The position numbers and the translations under genes were made by a program. Of a DNA stretch of 33,825 nt, positions 3,832 to 25,695 are shown in pieces. The notes below the pieces were generated by a model that was not told the origin of the DNA, did no database searches, and saw only the letters and a program-made list of their open reading frames with translations. Each line of letters begins with the position of its first letter. The first letter of the stretch is position 1. Source of the stretch: a virus (Duplodnaviria > Heunggongvirae > Uroviricota > Caudoviricetes); the IMG/VR virus record IMGVR_UViG_3300045988_128742. One strand, written 5' to 3'.

Positions 3832-4506
3832 TTAGGCTTTGATTTTGTATCTTCTTGGTTTTCCTGAGAAAATCACTGTACCAATTATAGAGCAATTACC
3901 GTTGATCTTAATGTAAGGCTCAGGCCAGTTTGGGTTTAACGCTTTGAGATAACGCTGTGTCCCATCTTCTATCAACCTTTTGAAGGTGGTTTCGCCTGTA
4001 TCGTGCATCAATGCAATAACGTCGTCACCGTGGCAGGCAGGTACTTCAGGATCGACAAAAATCATGTCTCCCGGGCGGTACTCATCAATCATTGAATCAC
4101 CTATCACCCGCAAGATATAAGTCATTTCCCCACAGGGTACAGGGCAGGGATACGTTTCTGCTGTGCTCAAATCAACCTCAGAATATCCAACTTCTTTCCA
4201 TGCTCCGGCCTGTACCCATGATATGACAGGGACTAATGTGATTTGTTTATTAGTGATTGAAACATCAGGTTTTTTTGTGATGTTCGTTGTCTGGTGTTCT
4301 TGATCGAGCCATCCGACAGGCAGGTCGAAACATTTTTCGATGTGTCGTGCCATGCTGTCACCGATATTTTTAGTAGCACCATCTCCCATAAACCTGCTGG
4401 TCTGGGTTGGCTCGCGATCAATCATAGTGGCAAAGGAAGAATTCCCGCCAACACCATCTCTCAGTTTTCTGGCGTTAGACCGCCGGATGTCATGGATTGT
4501 TTTCAT
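3832..4506 (-). CDS. cI: CI-type prophage repressor (N-terminal HTH, C-terminal S24 LexA-like autopeptidase domain)
   Basis: 224 aa; C-terminal domain has the Ser (GDSM) and Lys (TFKRL) dyad context typical of LexA/CI autocleavage; divergent from cro across an operator-rich intergenic region. No SD upstream of the ATG. Confidence 0.85.
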   Translation of the reverse strand: MKTIHDIRRSNARKLRDGVGGNSSFATMIDREPTQTSRFMGDGATKNIGDSMARHIEKCFDLPVGWLDQEHQTTNITKKPDVSITNKQITLVPVISWVQAGAWKEVGYSEVDLSTAETYPCPVPCGEMTYILRVIGDSMIDEYRPGDMIFVDPEVPACHGDDVIALMHDTGETTFKRLIEDGTQRYLKALNPNWPEPYIKINGNCSIIGTVIFSGKPRRYKIKA

Positions 4507-10357: not shown

Positions 10358-10374
10358 TTTTGTGGAGAAAGTTG

Positions 10375-10752
10375 ATGCGTGATATTCAAATGGTTCTGGA
10401 TCGTTGGGGAGCATGGGCGGCGAGTGATAGTTCAGGAGTAGACTATTCTCCTATAGCTGCTGGGTTTAAAGGGCTTCTTCCCTATACAAGCAAAACACGT
10501 CAGGCATGTTCAGATAGTGATGCATTAATTATTGAAGGTTGTCTTGCTCGTCTAAGGCAAAAAAGGCCGGACGAACATTCGCTTCTTGTTGCCCATTACC
10601 TATACGGTATCTCTAAAAGAAAGCTCGCCAAGGCTCGTAAAAAGGATGAGAAACTAATACGCATTGAGATACAGATGGCTGAGGGGTTTATTGATGGCTG
10701 CCTATCGATGCTGGAAATTAGTCTAGAGATGGACCCCGAAATTAAAGATTGA
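10375..10752 (+). CDS. Q: Late-gene antiterminator Q (phage 21-type, Phage_antitermQ family)
   Basis: N-terminus MRDIQMVLDRWGAWAA and C-terminal AEGFIDGCL motif match the Q21-type antiterminator family as recalled. ATG at 10375 with GGAGA SD; the track ORF starts at an upstream TTG. Confidence 0.8.
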   Translation: MRDIQMVLDRWGAWAASDSSGVDYSPIAAGFKGLLPYTSKTRQACSDSDALIIEGCLARLRQKRPDEHSLLVAHYLYGISKRKLAKARKKDEKLIRIEIQMAEGFIDGCLSMLEISLEMDPEIKD

Positions 10753-10759
10753 TTATTGA

Positions 10760-10783
10760 AGCCCGATTACTCGGGCTTTTGTT
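10760..10783 (+). terminator. Intrinsic terminator just downstream of Q
   Basis: Stem AGCCCG / CGGGCT with 6-nt loop followed by TTTGTT on the plus strand; the opposite-strand gene's stop codon lies in the loop. Confidence 0.6.
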
Positions 10784-11436
10784 CCACATCTCGAACATAG
10801 AGAATTACTGCTGACTTAATGTCACCATCGACGTGTTTTGCGTTAATGCTCAAATGTACAGGCTTTCTTTCCCACTCAGCTCGCTGCAATGCTTCTTTGT
10901 TTCCGGATTCATCAAGGAAAACATCCTGAACTACGCAGGTTAGACGTTGGTCGGTATCTACGCGTCGGACCTTAACTTTGAAACTCTCTGGGTCAGTATT
11001 ATTGACTTCTTCAATTCGGTAAATACCATCAATCCTCATTTCTGATGAACGTCTACGAGCATTCGTAACCAACTCTTTCGCCATTTCAGAATCAATAGTA
11101 ACGCCATCAATTTGAGCGTTATCTGAACGCACAAAGGATTTGACCATTTGGGTTTTAGCGTCATACGACATACGGTCCATGTTATCGAGAAGTGGTTTTT
11201 CCGCAATCATTTCTGAAATAACCCGCAGGCGTTTAGTTTCTTGCTCGCTCATGATCTGCATAGTCCGGAGATGTTCTTTCTCTCCATCCTTAGCAATTTC
11301 TGCAAGGCGAATATCTTTACGGTTGTCCAAGAACCGTTTAAATACTGTTACTCCGCCCCAGATGACTGCTGCGCCGAGAACAGTAAACATGATCTCAGTT
11401 GCGTTCATTTTACCAACAAGTTCCTGTGTGAGTTTG

Positions 11437-11445
11437 GTTAAAAAG
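11437..11445. repeat. Target-site duplication (left copy), GTTAAAAAG
   Basis: 9-bp direct repeat identical to 12497-12505, immediately flanking the IS inverted repeats. Confidence 0.85.
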
Positions 11446-12496
11446 GGCGTTGTTGCTCAAATCAGGGAACTATCCCGCAGTTTGGTGATCTGATCTCTTA
11501 GGTTCACCACCGGGAGCGCCAGATGGGCAAGTCCAAGCACAAGATCAGCAACTGGAAACAGTACAACCAAGCCTTGGTGCAACGTGGTTCGTTGACCGTC
11601 TGGATGGATGAGCAAGCCATCCAGCAGTGGCATTGCCAGACCCATCATGGCCGCCGAGGGCGAGGCTTCCATTACAGCGACTCCGCCATTGAAACCGCGC
11701 TGATGCTCAAGGCGGTATTCAAGCTACCGCTGCGTGCCTTGGAAGGCTTCATCAACTCGCTGTTCCAGCTGATGAATGTGCCCTTACAGTCGCCGGACTA
11801 CAGCTGTATCAGCAAGCGCGCCAAGACGGTCGAAATCAAGTACCGCCTACCGAGCCATGGCCCAGTAGCTCACCTGGTCATCGATGCCACCGGACTCAAG
11901 GTCTATGGCGAGGGCGAATGGAAAATTCGCAAGCACGGCAAGGAGAAACGCCGCGTCTGGCGCAAGCTTCACCTGGCCGTAGATGCGGCGACCCATGCCA
12001 TCGTCGCAGCCGAAGTCAGCCTGGAAACGGTGGGCGATAACGAGGTGCTGCCCACGCTGCTCAACCCCTTGCGCCGCAAGATAGAACAAGTCAGCGCCGA
12101 TGGTGCCTATGACACCAAAGCCTGTTATGCCCTACTACAAAAGAAGGGCGCCAAGGCCACCATACCGCCGAGAAAAAATGCGGCATTCTGGAAGACAGGC
12201 CATCCACGCAACGAGGCGGTTGCCGCGCTCAAGGCAGGAGAGCTGGAGCAATGGAAAAAGGACTCTGGCTATCATCAGCGCTCGATAGCTGAGACCGCCA
12301 TGTATCGCTTCAAGCAGCTCATCGGTCCGAAACTGAGTCTGCGGAGCTACAACGCCCAGGTGGGTGAGATCCTGGCTGGGGTAAAAGTCATGAACAAGGT
12401 CATAGGGCTTGGTATGCCCATTCGGCAGGCCGTCAACTAAGCCCGCCCGGCGGGTTGGGGAGCGAGTATCCGACTTTGGATTTGATCAACAAGGCC
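11446..12496 (+). mobile_element. IS903-group (IS5 family) insertion sequence, 1051 bp
   Basis: 18-bp terminal inverted repeats GGCGTTGTTGCTCAAATC (11446-11463) and GGCCTTGTTGATCAAATC (reverse complement of 12479-12496) flank one transposase gene, with a perfect 9-bp target duplication. Confidence 0.9.
11523..12440 (+). CDS. IS903-family transposase
   Basis: 305 aa; N-terminus MGKSKHKISNWKQYNQALVQRGSLT and core GEGEWK.RKHGKE.RR.WRKLHLAVD match IS903/IS102 transposase from memory. Confidence 0.9.
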   Translation: MGKSKHKISNWKQYNQALVQRGSLTVWMDEQAIQQWHCQTHHGRRGRGFHYSDSAIETALMLKAVFKLPLRALEGFINSLFQLMNVPLQSPDYSCISKRAKTVEIKYRLPSHGPVAHLVIDATGLKVYGEGEWKIRKHGKEKRRVWRKLHLAVDAATHAIVAAEVSLETVGDNEVLPTLLNPLRRKIEQVSADGAYDTKACYALLQKKGAKATIPPRKNAAFWKTGHPRNEAVAALKAGELEQWKKDSGYHQRSIAETAMYRFKQLIGPKLSLRSYNAQVGEILAGVKVMNKVIGLGMPIRQAVN

Positions 12497-12505
12497 GTTA
12501 AAAAG
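12497..12505. repeat. Target-site duplication (right copy), GTTAAAAAG
   Basis: Identical to 11437-11445. Confidence 0.85.
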
Positions 12506-13020
12506 CCATCAATGTTGATTTCTACTATTGAAGAACCCTGTTCTACCGTAACTTCTATTTCTAGGGCATCAAGTTCTTCTTTGGTCAGTTTGCGGACGTC
12601 AGGGACACCGTACTTGGCAAGGGCATATGATTTGTTGATTTGAGCTTGCATTTCAACAAATCCCTTCATAACTGAAGGTGTTAGCGATCTGTTGAATTTT
12701 TCACCGGTTAATCTGATGGTAAGGTTTGGCCATCCGTTGAAACTTAAACTGTCAGGTAAACCATAACCATCAAGATAGCTTTCAAGCAAATCGAAGGCTT
12801 GCTGCTCAGATTCAATGTCTACATGAATCTCATCAAACTTATCCAAAAATATGTCCTCATTCTAAGCCAACTGTCACCGTGAGGTTTGGCAACGCCTGCT
12901 TTATTTTTCGTTTTAAGCTGTGTGGCAAAAAAATAATGGAAAAACAGATAAAAATCACTAACGCGGTCCGCATTTTCTAGATTACTGTGTTAAGAGTGGT
13001 TACTTCGCCACACAACTTAA

Positions 13021-13044
13021 ACCCGCCGCTGAGCGGTTTTTTTG
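13021..13044 (+). terminator. Intrinsic terminator in the intergenic region upstream of the late genes
   Basis: GC stem (CCGC...GCGG) followed by seven T on the plus strand, directly after a 14-bp long-range inverted repeat (12913-12926 / 13007-13020). Confidence 0.5.
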
Positions 13045-13165
13045 TACCTGTAAACTTGGTGCAGCACAGTAAACACGCTGGTGGTCGTGAATACTGACTT
13101 TTTATCTTGCTGGCTTTTTAGACAAGAGTTATTGGTATGTCATGTTAACCAGAAGGGAAAAAGAC

Positions 13166-13369
13166 ATGCTAAAACAGCAAGATATGACAGAAACCGCCGC
13201 CGCAGTCCTTCATTTCTTACCTGCTGACAAGTGGGTAACGCCACGCATGATGACGAGAACTACCGGAGTAAGCGAAGCCCGGTGCCAGTTAATACTGACT
13301 CAGTTAGTTCTGGCGGGTCTGGCGAAGGATAACGGCGGGTACGGGAATAAATTCAGACGCTGCCAGTAA
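13166..13369 (+). CDS. Small putative winged-helix DNA-binding protein
   Basis: Track ORF 13142-13369; second ATG (13166) has a better SD (AAGGGA). HTH-like segment TPRMMTRTTGVSEARCQLILTQL. Confidence 0.4.
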   Translation: MLKQQDMTETAAAVLHFLPADKWVTPRMMTRTTGVSEARCQLILTQLVLAGLAKDNGGYGNKFRRCQ

Positions 13370-13519: not shown

Positions 13520-14572
13520 ATGAAAAATACTGTAAAAATAAACAGTGTTGATTTAATCAACGCTGATTGCCTGCATTTTATTCAGTCCCTGCCTGATGAT
13601 TCCATTGACCTGATTGTTACCGATCCGCCTTACTTCAAGGTGAAACCTAACGGTTGGGACAATCAGTGGAAAGGGGACGAAGATTACCTTAAGTGGCTGG
13701 ACCACTGTCTGGCCCAGTTCTGGCGGGTGTTAAAACCTGCCGGAAGCCTTTACCTGTTCTGTGGACATCGCCTGGCATCTGATATTGAGATCATGATGCG
13801 TGAACGTTTCAACGTGCTTAACCATATCATCTGGGCGAAGCCGTCCGGACGTTGGAATGGGTGTAATAAAGAAAGTCTGCGCGCATATTTTCCTGCCACA
13901 GAGCGCGTTCTGTTTGCTGAACATTACCAGGGGCCATATCGCGGCAAAAGTGACGGCTATGCGGCAAAAGAAAGGGAACTCAAACAGCACATAATGGCAC
14001 CGCTGATATCGTATTTCAGGGATGCTCGTGCCGAACTGGGTATAACGGCAAAACAAATTGCCGAAGCCACAGGTAAGAAAAATATGGTTTCCCACTGGTT
14101 TGGTGCCAGTCAGTGGCAGTTGCCGAATGAGGCTGACTATCGGAAGTTACAGGCACTGTTTTCCCGTATAGCGGCAGAGAAGTTTCAGGAACAACAACTG
14201 GAACAACCACACCACCAGCTGGTGGCATCTTATGATTCACTGAATCGCAAATATTCTGAATTGCTGGATGAGTTTAAATCTCTCCGGCGCTATTTCTCCG
14301 TATCAGTCTCCGTGCCTTATACCGATGTCTGGACGCATAAACCCGTTCAGTTCTACCCGGGTAAACATCCGTGCGAGAAACCGGCGGATATGCTCCGGCA
14401 AATAATCAATGCCAGTAGTCGACCTGGTGATCTGGTTGCTGATTTCTTTATGGGATCCGGTTCCACAATAAAAGCAGCAATGGCGCTGGGGCGTCGGGCG
14501 TTAGGTGTTGAACTTGAGTCAGAGCGGTTTAATCAGACGGTGAAAGAGGTAAGTGAACTGGTGGGGAAATAA
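13520..14572 (+). CDS. Beta-class DNA methyltransferase (N6-adenine or N4-cytosine), orphan
   Basis: 350 aa; catalytic DPPY motif near the N-terminus (LIVTDPPYF) and AdoMet-binding FxGxG motif near the C-terminus (DFFMGSGST), i.e. beta-class motif order. No restriction endonuclease candidate adjacent. Confidence 0.8.
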   Translation: MKNTVKINSVDLINADCLHFIQSLPDDSIDLIVTDPPYFKVKPNGWDNQWKGDEDYLKWLDHCLAQFWRVLKPAGSLYLFCGHRLASDIEIMMRERFNVLNHIIWAKPSGRWNGCNKESLRAYFPATERVLFAEHYQGPYRGKSDGYAAKERELKQHIMAPLISYFRDARAELGITAKQIAEATGKKNMVSHWFGASQWQLPNEADYRKLQALFSRIAAEKFQEQQLEQPHHQLVASYDSLNRKYSELLDEFKSLRRYFSVSVSVPYTDVWTHKPVQFYPGKHPCEKPADMLRQIINASSRPGDLVADFFMGSGSTIKAAMALGRRALGVELESERFNQTVKEVSELVGK

Positions 14573-24044: not shown

Positions 24045-24215
24045 ATGTTTGTCAAACCTGTTAAAGGGCGGTCAGTTCCTGACCCTGCCCGCGGCGACCT
24101 TTTGCCCGCCGAAGGGCGAAATGTTGACGAGAACAACTACTGGCTGCGCCGTGAAGTAGCGGGTGATATCCGGCGCGTGAATAAAAAGGTGAACACCGAT
24201 GACGATAAGCTTTAA
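24045..24215 (+). CDS. Small Mu gp38-like protein (DUF2635-like), absent from the ORF track
   Basis: 56-codon ORF (MFVKPVKGRSVPDPARGDLLPAEGRNVDENNYWLRREVAGDIRRVNKKVNTDDDKL) translated by hand; below the track's 60-aa cutoff; overlaps the sheath start by 17 nt. Confidence 0.55.
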   Translation: MFVKPVKGRSVPDPARGDLLPAEGRNVDENNYWLRREVAGDIRRVNKKVNTDDDKL

Positions 24216-25695
24216 CACCATTCCGTCGAATACGCTGGTTCCGCTGTTTTATGCGGAAATGGATAACCAGGCGGCGAATACTGCACAGGACAGCGGAGCA
24301 TCGCTGCTGATTGGTCATGCCAATAACGGTGCAGAGATTGTTGCCAACAGTCTGGTACTGATGCCGTCGGCAGACTATGCACGCCAGATTTGTGGTGCGG
24401 GAAGTCAGCTGGCGCGTATGGTCGAGGCTTATCGCCAGACCGACCCGTTTGGTGAACTGTATGTAATTGCCGTTCCTGAATCCACGGGCGCGGCGGCAAC
24501 GGTTACGCTGACGGTGACCGGGGAGGCAACCGAAACCGGCACGGTGAATGTCTATGTGGGACGTACCCGCGTGCAGGCTCCAGTGACCAACGGCGATAAC
24601 GTCACGACGATTGCCAGCAGTATCCAGGATGCCATCAATGCCGTTCCGGCCATGCCGTTTACGGCTTCATCTTCGGCAGGCGTGGTCACACTGACCGCGC
24701 GTCATAAGGGGCTTTGCGGGAATGAAATTCCTGTCAGCCTCAATTACTACGGCTTTGGTGGGGGCGAAGTGCTGCCAGCGGGCGTACAGATTGCCGTGGC
24801 GACGGGGACCGCCGGAACGGGTGCTCCGGTTCTCACCGGCGCGGTGGCTGCAATGGCGGATGAGCCGTTTGATTATATCGGCCTGCCGTTCAACGACACG
24901 GCCTCCGTTAACACGCTGGTGACCGAGATGAACGATACCAGCGGTCGCTGGAGCTATGCGCGTCAGCTGTATGGTCATGTGTATACGGCAAAGATCGGCA
25001 CGCTGTCAGAACTGGTGACCGCAGGTGACCAGTTTAACCAGCAGCACATTACCCTGGCGGGATACGAAAAAGAGACCCAGACGCCTGCCGACGAGCTGGC
25101 GGCAAGCCGTACCGCCCGCGCAGCAGTGTTTATTCGCAACGATCCGGCACGTCCCACGCAGACCGGTGAGCTGGTGGGTATGCTGCCTGCGCCGAAGGGG
25201 AAACGGTTCACGATGACCGAACAACAGACCCTGCTGTCGCATGGCGTGGCAACGGCGTATGTCGAAAGCGGGGTGCTGCGCATTCAGCGTGATGTCACCA
25301 CGTACAGGAAAAATGCTTACGGTGTTGCGGATAACAGCTACCTCGACAGCGAGACGCTGCATACCAGCGCGTATGTGCTGCGCAAACTGAAATCCGTCAT
25401 TACCAGTAAGTACGGGCGTCACAAGCTTGCCAGCGACGGTACCCGCTTTGGTCCCGGTCAGGCGATTGTCACACCGGCGGTGATCAAAGGGGAACTGCTG
25501 ACAACCTACCGTCAGCTTGAGCGTGCGGGGATCGTGGAAAACTACGAACTGTTTAAGCAGTACCTGGTTGTGGAGCGTGATGCCAGCGATCCGAACCGCC
25601 TGAACACGCTGTTCCCGCCTGACTATGTTAACCAGTTGCGTGTCTTTGCCGTGGTTAACCAGTTCCGTCTTCAGTATTCAGAGGAGTCTGCATAA
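24199..25695 (+). CDS. Contractile tail sheath protein (Mu gpL-like)
   Basis: 498 aa; followed directly by the tube gene. Confidence 0.85.
   Translation: MTISFNTIPSNTLVPLFYAEMDNQAANTAQDSGASLLIGHANNGAEIVANSLVLMPSADYARQICGAGSQLARMVEAYRQTDPFGELYVIAVPESTGAAATVTLTVTGEATETGTVNVYVGRTRVQAPVTNGDNVTTIASSIQDAINAVPAMPFTASSSAGVVTLTARHKGLCGNEIPVSLNYYGFGGGEVLPAGVQIAVATGTAGTGAPVLTGAVAAMADEPFDYIGLPFNDTASVNTLVTEMNDTSGRWSYARQLYGHVYTAKIGTLSELVTAGDQFNQQHITLAGYEKETQTPADELAASRTARAAVFIRNDPARPTQTGELVGMLPAPKGKRFTMTEQQTLLSHGVATAYVESGVLRIQRDVTTYRKNAYGVADNSYLDSETLHTSAYVLRKLKSVITSKYGRHKLASDGTRFGPGQAIVTPAVIKGELLTTYRQLERAGIVENYELFKQYLVVERDASDPNRLNTLFPPDYVNQLRVFAVVNQFRLQYSEESA

Follow-up and report, generated by a model that had tools for sequence, protein, structure and literature searches.

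The subject of this report is an accessory gene interrupted by an insertion sequence (IS) in a 33,825-nucleotide stretch of Caudoviricetes DNA (IMG/VR record IMGVR_UViG_3300045988_128742), referred to at its full length as the window. The gene lies between the antiterminator gene Q and the late operon of a lambdoid prophage. An ordinary insertion of the element ISEc35 has inactivated it, and the copy in the window is a pseudogene. For the window itself, this is a modest finding. The intact gene is WP_000357056.1, a member of the phage protein family PHROG 6191. Judging by its relatives and their surroundings, it is an autonomous single-gene cargo of a large prophage-borne family. An anti-phage function for its product is about an even prospect.

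Insertion of ISEc35 into the Accessory Gene

The interrupting element occupies positions 11446..12496 on the plus strand (1,051 bp) and is 100% identical to the copies annotated as “IS5-like element ISEc35” in many Escherichia coli genomes. The match to these annotated copies starts and stops exactly at 11446 and 12496. The element is bounded by 18-bp terminal inverted repeats, GGCGTTGTTGCTCAAATC (11446-11463) and GGCCTTGTTGATCAAATC (12479-12496), which agree at 15 of the 18 positions. It encodes a DDE-type transposase of 305 amino acids (11523-12440, plus strand; DDE_Tnp_1_5, E 2e-37; DDE_Tnp_1, E 9e-31). On either side stand two identical direct repeats of GTTAAAAAG, the left at 11437..11445 and the right at 12497..12505, which form a 9-bp target-site duplication. 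The point of entry, GTTAAAAAG, falls inside codons 117-119 of the 339-codon gene, and the element parts the N-terminal domain of the accessory protein from its hydrophobic helix and C-terminal half.

Removal in silico of the IS and one copy of the repeat joins 12846..12497 to 11436..10767 in a single frame without a stop, as the initial annotation had proposed. The restored open reading frame (ORF) is 1,020 nt long, with 339 codons and a stop, and contains the junction predicted for it (...NIDGFLT/KLTQELVGKMNATEIMF...). The 5′ part of the split gene (12497..12846, minus strand) holds codons 1-116 and two further nucleotides, and begins with a TTG start codon at 12846-12844. The 3′ part (10767..11436, minus strand) runs from the last nucleotide of codon 117 to codon 339 and ends with a TAA stop at 10769-10767.

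Signals and Borders of the Gene

The start and end of the gene, its base composition and its orientation are as they had been described from the sequence. The TTG codon is the start used by RefSeq too and is preceded, across a 7-nt spacer, by the Shine–Dalgarno sequence GAGGA (12854..12858, minus strand), which is kept in two Enterobacter loci (L024, L025). The restored gene is AT-rich, with a guanine-plus-cytosine content of 42.0% compared with 52.7% for the window. It runs on the minus strand, opposite to its neighbors, and converges with Q (10360..10752, plus strand; Phage_antitermQ, E 2e-52), which bounds the cargo slot on the left.

The two convergent genes have in common a hairpin at 10759..10778, AAGCCCGA-TTAC-TCGGGCTT, followed on the plus strand by TTTTGTT. 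The hairpin starts 7 nt past the Q stop, and its loop contains the TAA stop codon of the split gene. It folds stably on both strands, at -15.8 kcal/mol on the plus strand and -16.6 on the minus strand (z about -3.7). The right border of the slot is a terminator-like hairpin with a T-run (13025..13043, plus strand), located downstream of the conserved late-promoter region. Upstream of the gene, the block 12950-13010 is conserved in Enterobacter, which probably reflects an overlapping late-promoter/Q-utilisation region.

A Single Gene in Uninterrupted Genomes

The uninterrupted allele was sought in relatives, and it is one gene rather than two. The rebuilt DNA corresponds to one annotated coding sequence (CDS) over 1020/1020 bases in 86 of 5,426 complete E. 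coli genomes, where the gene is always chromosomal and single-copy. In NZ_CP018948.1, it is annotated as WP_000357056.1, “hypothetical protein”, and the gene order is that of the window: DUF968, Q, the gene on the opposite strand, a small ORF, a DNA methyltransferase and the essD/rrrD lysis genes. The rebuilt protein (P0249) is present on at least 1,000 public contigs under the name “MULTISPECIES: hypothetical protein [Enterobacteriaceae]”. The accessory gene is real, widespread and autonomous prophage cargo, and the intact protein is one of the commoner uncharacterised cargo products of enterobacterial prophages.

The possibility that the two halves are separate genes, or that the joined frame is open by chance, is practically nil. 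Gene callers do annotate ORFs of 137 and 213 amino acids on the split allele, and about 91% of the family share Met127, the start of the 213-amino acid ORF. Against this stand the match of 1020/1020 bases with one CDS in the 86 complete genomes, a full-length match to PHROG 6191 (E 1.6e-152) and hundreds of full-length homologs down to about 25% identity, which together refute the two-gene reading. The Met127 codon (11406-11408, minus strand) is situated just before the hydrophobic helix. An internal start at this position, giving a dual product of the sieB/esc or holin/antiholin kind, was considered and rejected; there is no consistent Shine–Dalgarno sequence or other ribosome-binding site in nine diverse loci, and the Salmonella homolog lacks that Met.

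The Split Allele in Circulation

In the window, translation from the native start reads into the IS as far as a stop at 12435-12433. The result is a product of 137 amino acids comprising the N-domain and a 20-amino acid tail derived from the IS. Translation from the native start can give no more than this N-domain fragment, and the system is off. At least 24 public contigs encode the same truncated product (P0252). The order 137-amino acid ORF, ISEc35 transposase, 213-amino acid ORF and Q likewise recurs on at least 24 public contigs (loci L026-L029 among them), some from wastewater metagenomes and one a human-gut metagenome scaffold of 33.8 kb. As the split allele is carried by many public contigs, it is a circulating lineage and not an assembly artefact. 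Among the 5,426 complete RefSeq E. coli genomes, no copy of ISEc35 was found inside the accessory gene. Occurring naturally in gut and wastewater samples, the split allele can serve directly as a loss-of-function comparison.

The Protein Family

The intact protein matches PHROG 6191 from residue 3 to 337, against profile positions 2-337 of 338. This phage protein family is annotated as being of unknown function and is the only library family matched. An exhaustive profile search returned 1,515 clusters at 50% identity with E <= 1e-3, of which 590 have E <= 1e-30. Nearly all of them cover the whole profile, and nearly all are 320-350 amino acids long. The hosts of the homologs are Enterobacterales, Pseudomonas, Acinetobacter, Moraxella, Burkholderiales and a few Deltaproteobacteria. 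When a 115-sequence profile was run against a collection of 5.8 billion proteins, only further unannotated “hypothetical” proteins were found.

The first reading of the DNA had recognised no family for the protein, and the searches agree. The protein itself, 44 diverse members, three phage homologs and ten longer homologs were all without a significant match in Pfam, NCBIfam and PADLOC, and the family profile had no match among all PDB sequences. In PADLOC-DB v2, the E. coli protein had no match, while the 44 members and three phage homologs gave scattered matches of E 2e-4 or weaker to unrelated models. The RexA, RexB and SieB families were absent from the Pfam scans at E up to 1. Sub-threshold matches to DUF7947, FNIII-A_GpJ and PDC-S22 were judged to be noise.

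Predicted Structure

A structure was modeled with AlphaFold2 from a 44-sequence alignment, with a mean predicted local distance difference test (pLDDT) of 85.8 and a predicted template modeling score (pTM) of 0.68. The layout read earlier from the sequence, an N-terminal domain of ~120 amino acids, a hydrophobic helix and a C-terminal part of ~190 amino acids, agrees with the model. In the model, an alpha/beta N-domain (residues 8-123) is followed by a long helix (helices 129-144 and 146-163) which holds the hydrophobic stretch 132-150, IMFTVLGAAVIWGGVTVFK. Further helices extend to about residue 218, followed by a small hairpin and a helix, and the protein ends in a beta-barrel (248-333) with one inserted helix.

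The C-terminal barrel (10788..11045, minus strand) is five-stranded and closed, has its helix between strands 3 and 4 and is similar to known OB-folds. Its top structural analogs include periplasmic or secreted OB proteins, namely SilF and the B subunits of AB5 toxins. The N-domain of the model has no solved structural analog. It is strongly acidic, with a charge of -11 in E. coli and a family median of -7. The best matches of the full model in BFVD, by Foldseek, are uncharacterised phage proteins with low template modeling (TM) scores.

The hydrophobic, glycine-rich helix (residues 132-150; 11337..11393, minus strand) is a predicted transmembrane segment. Its mean Kyte–Doolittle hydropathy is 1.75 in E. 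coli and 0.8-2.3 across the family, in which the helix is conserved with the recurrent motif L-G-x-A-x-I-W-G-G. The small residues of this motif seem to be spaced as in helix-helix packing motifs. The accessory protein is probably membrane-anchored.

Genomic Contexts

In collinear relatives, the slot between Q and the late promoter holds the accessory gene (83 genomes), holds another gene of 148 amino acids, or is empty, and so behaves as a cargo hotspot. The other gene is an opposite-strand hypothetical, WP_001038608.1 (locus L018, 2166-2612; NZ_CP062901.1, 3995678-3996124). The empty slot is seen in locus L019, which has a different Q of 250 amino acids. In Enterobacter, a homolog of 86% identity keeps the Q-convergent position next to a different downstream lysis cassette.

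The more distant homologs lie directly downstream of a cI-type repressor, on the same strand and divergent from cro. They include those of Salmonella (63% identity), Morganella, Acinetobacter, the Moraxella phage Mcat17 and the E. coli phage phi458. In Mcat17, the gene upstream of the homolog is an S24-peptidase repressor. The position downstream of cI is that of rexAB in lambda, and repressor-adjacent genes are co-transcribed with the repressor in lysogens. Most homologs adjoin cI. A P. aeruginosa homolog (44% identity) lies between tail genes I and J, and a further homolog is found in a Mu-like phage.

The family is thus found in four different prophage slots, without a conserved partner. 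No neighbor is conserved across these contexts, and the protein is therefore taken to work alone. The gene has the marks of a moron, as it is present or absent among collinear relatives, deviates in base composition and has its own terminator.

In loci of the Acinetobacter type, a conserved ORF of 100 amino acids lies about 140 nt upstream of the homolog (L013, 4560-4862; L016, 4550-4852; L017, 148-450). A GGDEF-domain gene comes after this ORF in L013 (6246-7193) and L016 (6753-7700), and in L013 an HSDR_N-domain gene is placed between the repressor and the homolog. These neighbors may be clade-specific partners or simply more cargo.

The prophage of the window is a hybrid. A lambdoid early region with an integrase, an S24 repressor and Q is followed by a contractile tail (sheath, PF04984/PF17482), which is not of the lambda type; these features are located at 102-1265, 3832-4506 and 24199-25695. 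Two further genes lie on the plus strand beyond the slot, between the late-promoter/terminator region and the holin. One is a small conserved ORF (13142-13369; RefSeq WP_000917724.1). The other, an N6/N4 DNA methyltransferase (13520-14572; PF01555, E 1e-42), is an orphan methylase at the head of the late operon.

Proposed Function

The intact protein has been flagged by DefensePredictor (DeWeirdt, Mahoney & Laub, Science 2026; PMC13092281), in which Table S10 lists WP_000357056.1 as a “Predicted novel defense gene” with the values 6.55/1.82/4.51/9.74. That table holds 1,041 E. coli protein clusters under this call. By a count made here from Table S6 of the same paper, 15 of the 29 tested units with log-odds of 4.55-8.55 were protective, and the prior is therefore about one half. 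The listing, the variability of the slot in relatives (L018, L019) and the homologs downstream of cI all back the initial annotation in its view of the position as one for lysogenic-conversion, exclusion or defence cargo.

The proposal, for which the chances are evenly balanced, is that the intact protein is an anti-phage factor of the lysogen with an anchor in the inner membrane. The protein would be made in the lysogen, held in the inner membrane by its central helix and would protect the lysogen from other phages. The preferred mechanism is abortive infection. One soluble domain would recognize a phage component, and packing of the helix through its small residues (G139, A141, G145 and G146) would drive oligomerisation, by which the membrane would be permeabilised or depolarised. 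This particular chain of recognition, helix-driven oligomerisation and permeabilisation is improbable as it stands. It is somewhat doubtful, though possible, that the single polypeptide is a transmembrane sensor-effector, with the N-domain and OB-fold on opposite sides of the inner membrane and the glycine-rich helix between them; such a protein would sense an incoming phage on one side and act on the other. Equally tentative is the wider suggestion that the ~1,500 clusters, from Gamma-, Beta- and some Deltaproteobacteria and mostly repressor-adjacent, form a new single-protein anti-phage family.

A number of observations weigh against this proposal. A full-text literature search for the accession WP_000357056.1 returned no paper. 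The protein is absent from DefensePredictor Tables S6-S8, which cover 94 tested and 42 validated units, and the conserved motif of the family occurs in no validated protein of that study (PMC13092281). Part of the DefensePredictor score comes from the context signal that is also used here, and the two lines of evidence are not fully independent. By the PADLOC searches, the protein cannot be linked by sequence to any known defence protein. Upstream of the split gene, no sigma-70 promoter is convincing or conserved; the best candidate, TTGCCA-17-AATAAA (12928-12900), is weak and not conserved in Enterobacter. The split allele persists in many samples; the gene is therefore dispensable for the prophage, which evidently tolerates its loss.

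The structural features carry reservations of the same kind. The hydrophobic segment is marginal in some distant members (hydropathy 0.8-1.3). The bias in lysine plus arginine between its flanks is weak (2.2 on the N-side vs 3.7 on the C-side), and membrane insertion and topology are therefore uncertain. With a family median of -1, the OB-fold is close to neutral or slightly acidic, in contrast to typical binders of single-stranded DNA, and a basic OB-fold of that type is disfavored. Conservation is about even across the N-domain, helix and OB-fold, and the conserved residues include G104/S105, W305 and the glycines of the helix; there is no hypervariable domain such as a fast-evolving sensor might show, and the idea of one was dropped.

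Two other roles have to be set beside the anti-phage factor proposed above. In superinfection exclusion, the protein would block genome entry at the inner membrane without killing the cell, for instance through binding to an entry factor or to a tape-measure or ejection protein. The predicted single-pass layout with a folded domain on each side would suit such a role, as would the P. aeruginosa homolog between tail genes I and J. The exclusion genes cor, llp and HK97 gene 15 sit in comparable places. The periplasmic or secreted nature of SilF and the AB5-toxin B subunits among the OB-fold analogs points the same way. However, most homologs adjoin cI and not tail genes, and the weak positive-inside bias puts the OB domain in the cytoplasm. 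Exclusion is held to be quite unlikely.

The protein may instead have no part in defence and be a membrane protein of lysogenic conversion or an accessory of the phage, of use to the host or the phage in another way, for instance through the envelope, the timing of lysis or the stress response. Within this range of scores, about half of the DefensePredictor candidates failed to protect when they were tested, and the lack of homology to any defence family, the proximity of the E. coli and Enterobacter gene to the lysis cassette and the maintenance of the split allele in several populations all count for such a role. However, close relatives lack the gene, and its strand is the opposite of that of the late operon, which argues against a core function in lysis or morphogenesis. 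Lysis accessory genes stay with their cassette, but the slot of this gene varies from lineage to lineage, and the protein lacks a signal peptide, lipobox or enzyme domain that might point to modification of the surface. A role outside defence is unlikely.

Should a phage challenge prove positive, it would establish a defence family made up of one gene, whose N-domain fold is without a solved analog. PHROG 6191 and hundreds of proteins annotated as “hypothetical” would thereby gain a function.

Comparison with Known Systems

The interrupting element shows no difference from the known IS5-family element ISEc35. It is an exact copy in its full identity, its 18-bp repeats, its DDE transposase and its 9-bp duplication.

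RexA/RexB of lambda are prophage cargo expressed with the repressor and include a membrane component; a membrane depolarisation that aborts infection has been proposed for them. Most homologs of the present family occupy the equivalent spot directly downstream of cI. The SieA protein of P22, gp15 of HK97 and Imm of T4 are phage- or prophage-encoded, membrane-located products of single-gene morons that act without partners. Like HK97 gene 15, one homolog of the present family is embedded among tail genes. Proteins of this superinfection-exclusion type at the inner membrane are covered in PMC10883804. They differ from the present family in that no sequence similarity was detected in the libraries searched, and in being small or multi-pass, without large folded soluble domains on both sides.

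The second-best BFVD match of the full model is a phage DUF6575 protein of 370 amino acids, aligned over about 336 columns (Foldseek E 2e-5) with low TM-scores of 0.26-0.28. One DUF6575 protein is reportedly a validated PD system (Vassallo et al. 2022, PMC9519451), and the domain has been described as new to defence. No match to Pfam DUF6575 or to the PADLOC PD-system models was found in the 47 family members scanned, and membership is not supported; the Foldseek match is no more than a lead. Another protein, WP_001288169.1 (310 amino acids), is listed as an untested “predicted novel defense gene” in DefensePredictor Table S5 (PMC13092281), and has weak matches to DUF6575 (62-161) and to an OB-fold (235-293). 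Its layout resembles that of the present family, of which it may be a structural cousin.

The repressor-adjacent slot has repeatedly yielded defence systems. DS-34, which consists of a CI repressor and an AbiZ-like DUF6161 protein, was found and validated with the same predictor that flags WP_000357056.1 (PMC13092281). In sequence and fold, the two are unrelated, the DS-34 protein being DUF6161/AbiZ-like with a transmembrane region at 184-237. DS-34 has been shown to be protective, whereas the present family, with its OB-fold and an N-domain without solved analog, is only predicted to be so. In slot and gross type, they are alike, as the effector of DS-34 is also a single gene immediately downstream of a phage CI repressor, encoding about 320 amino acids with a coiled coil and a transmembrane region.

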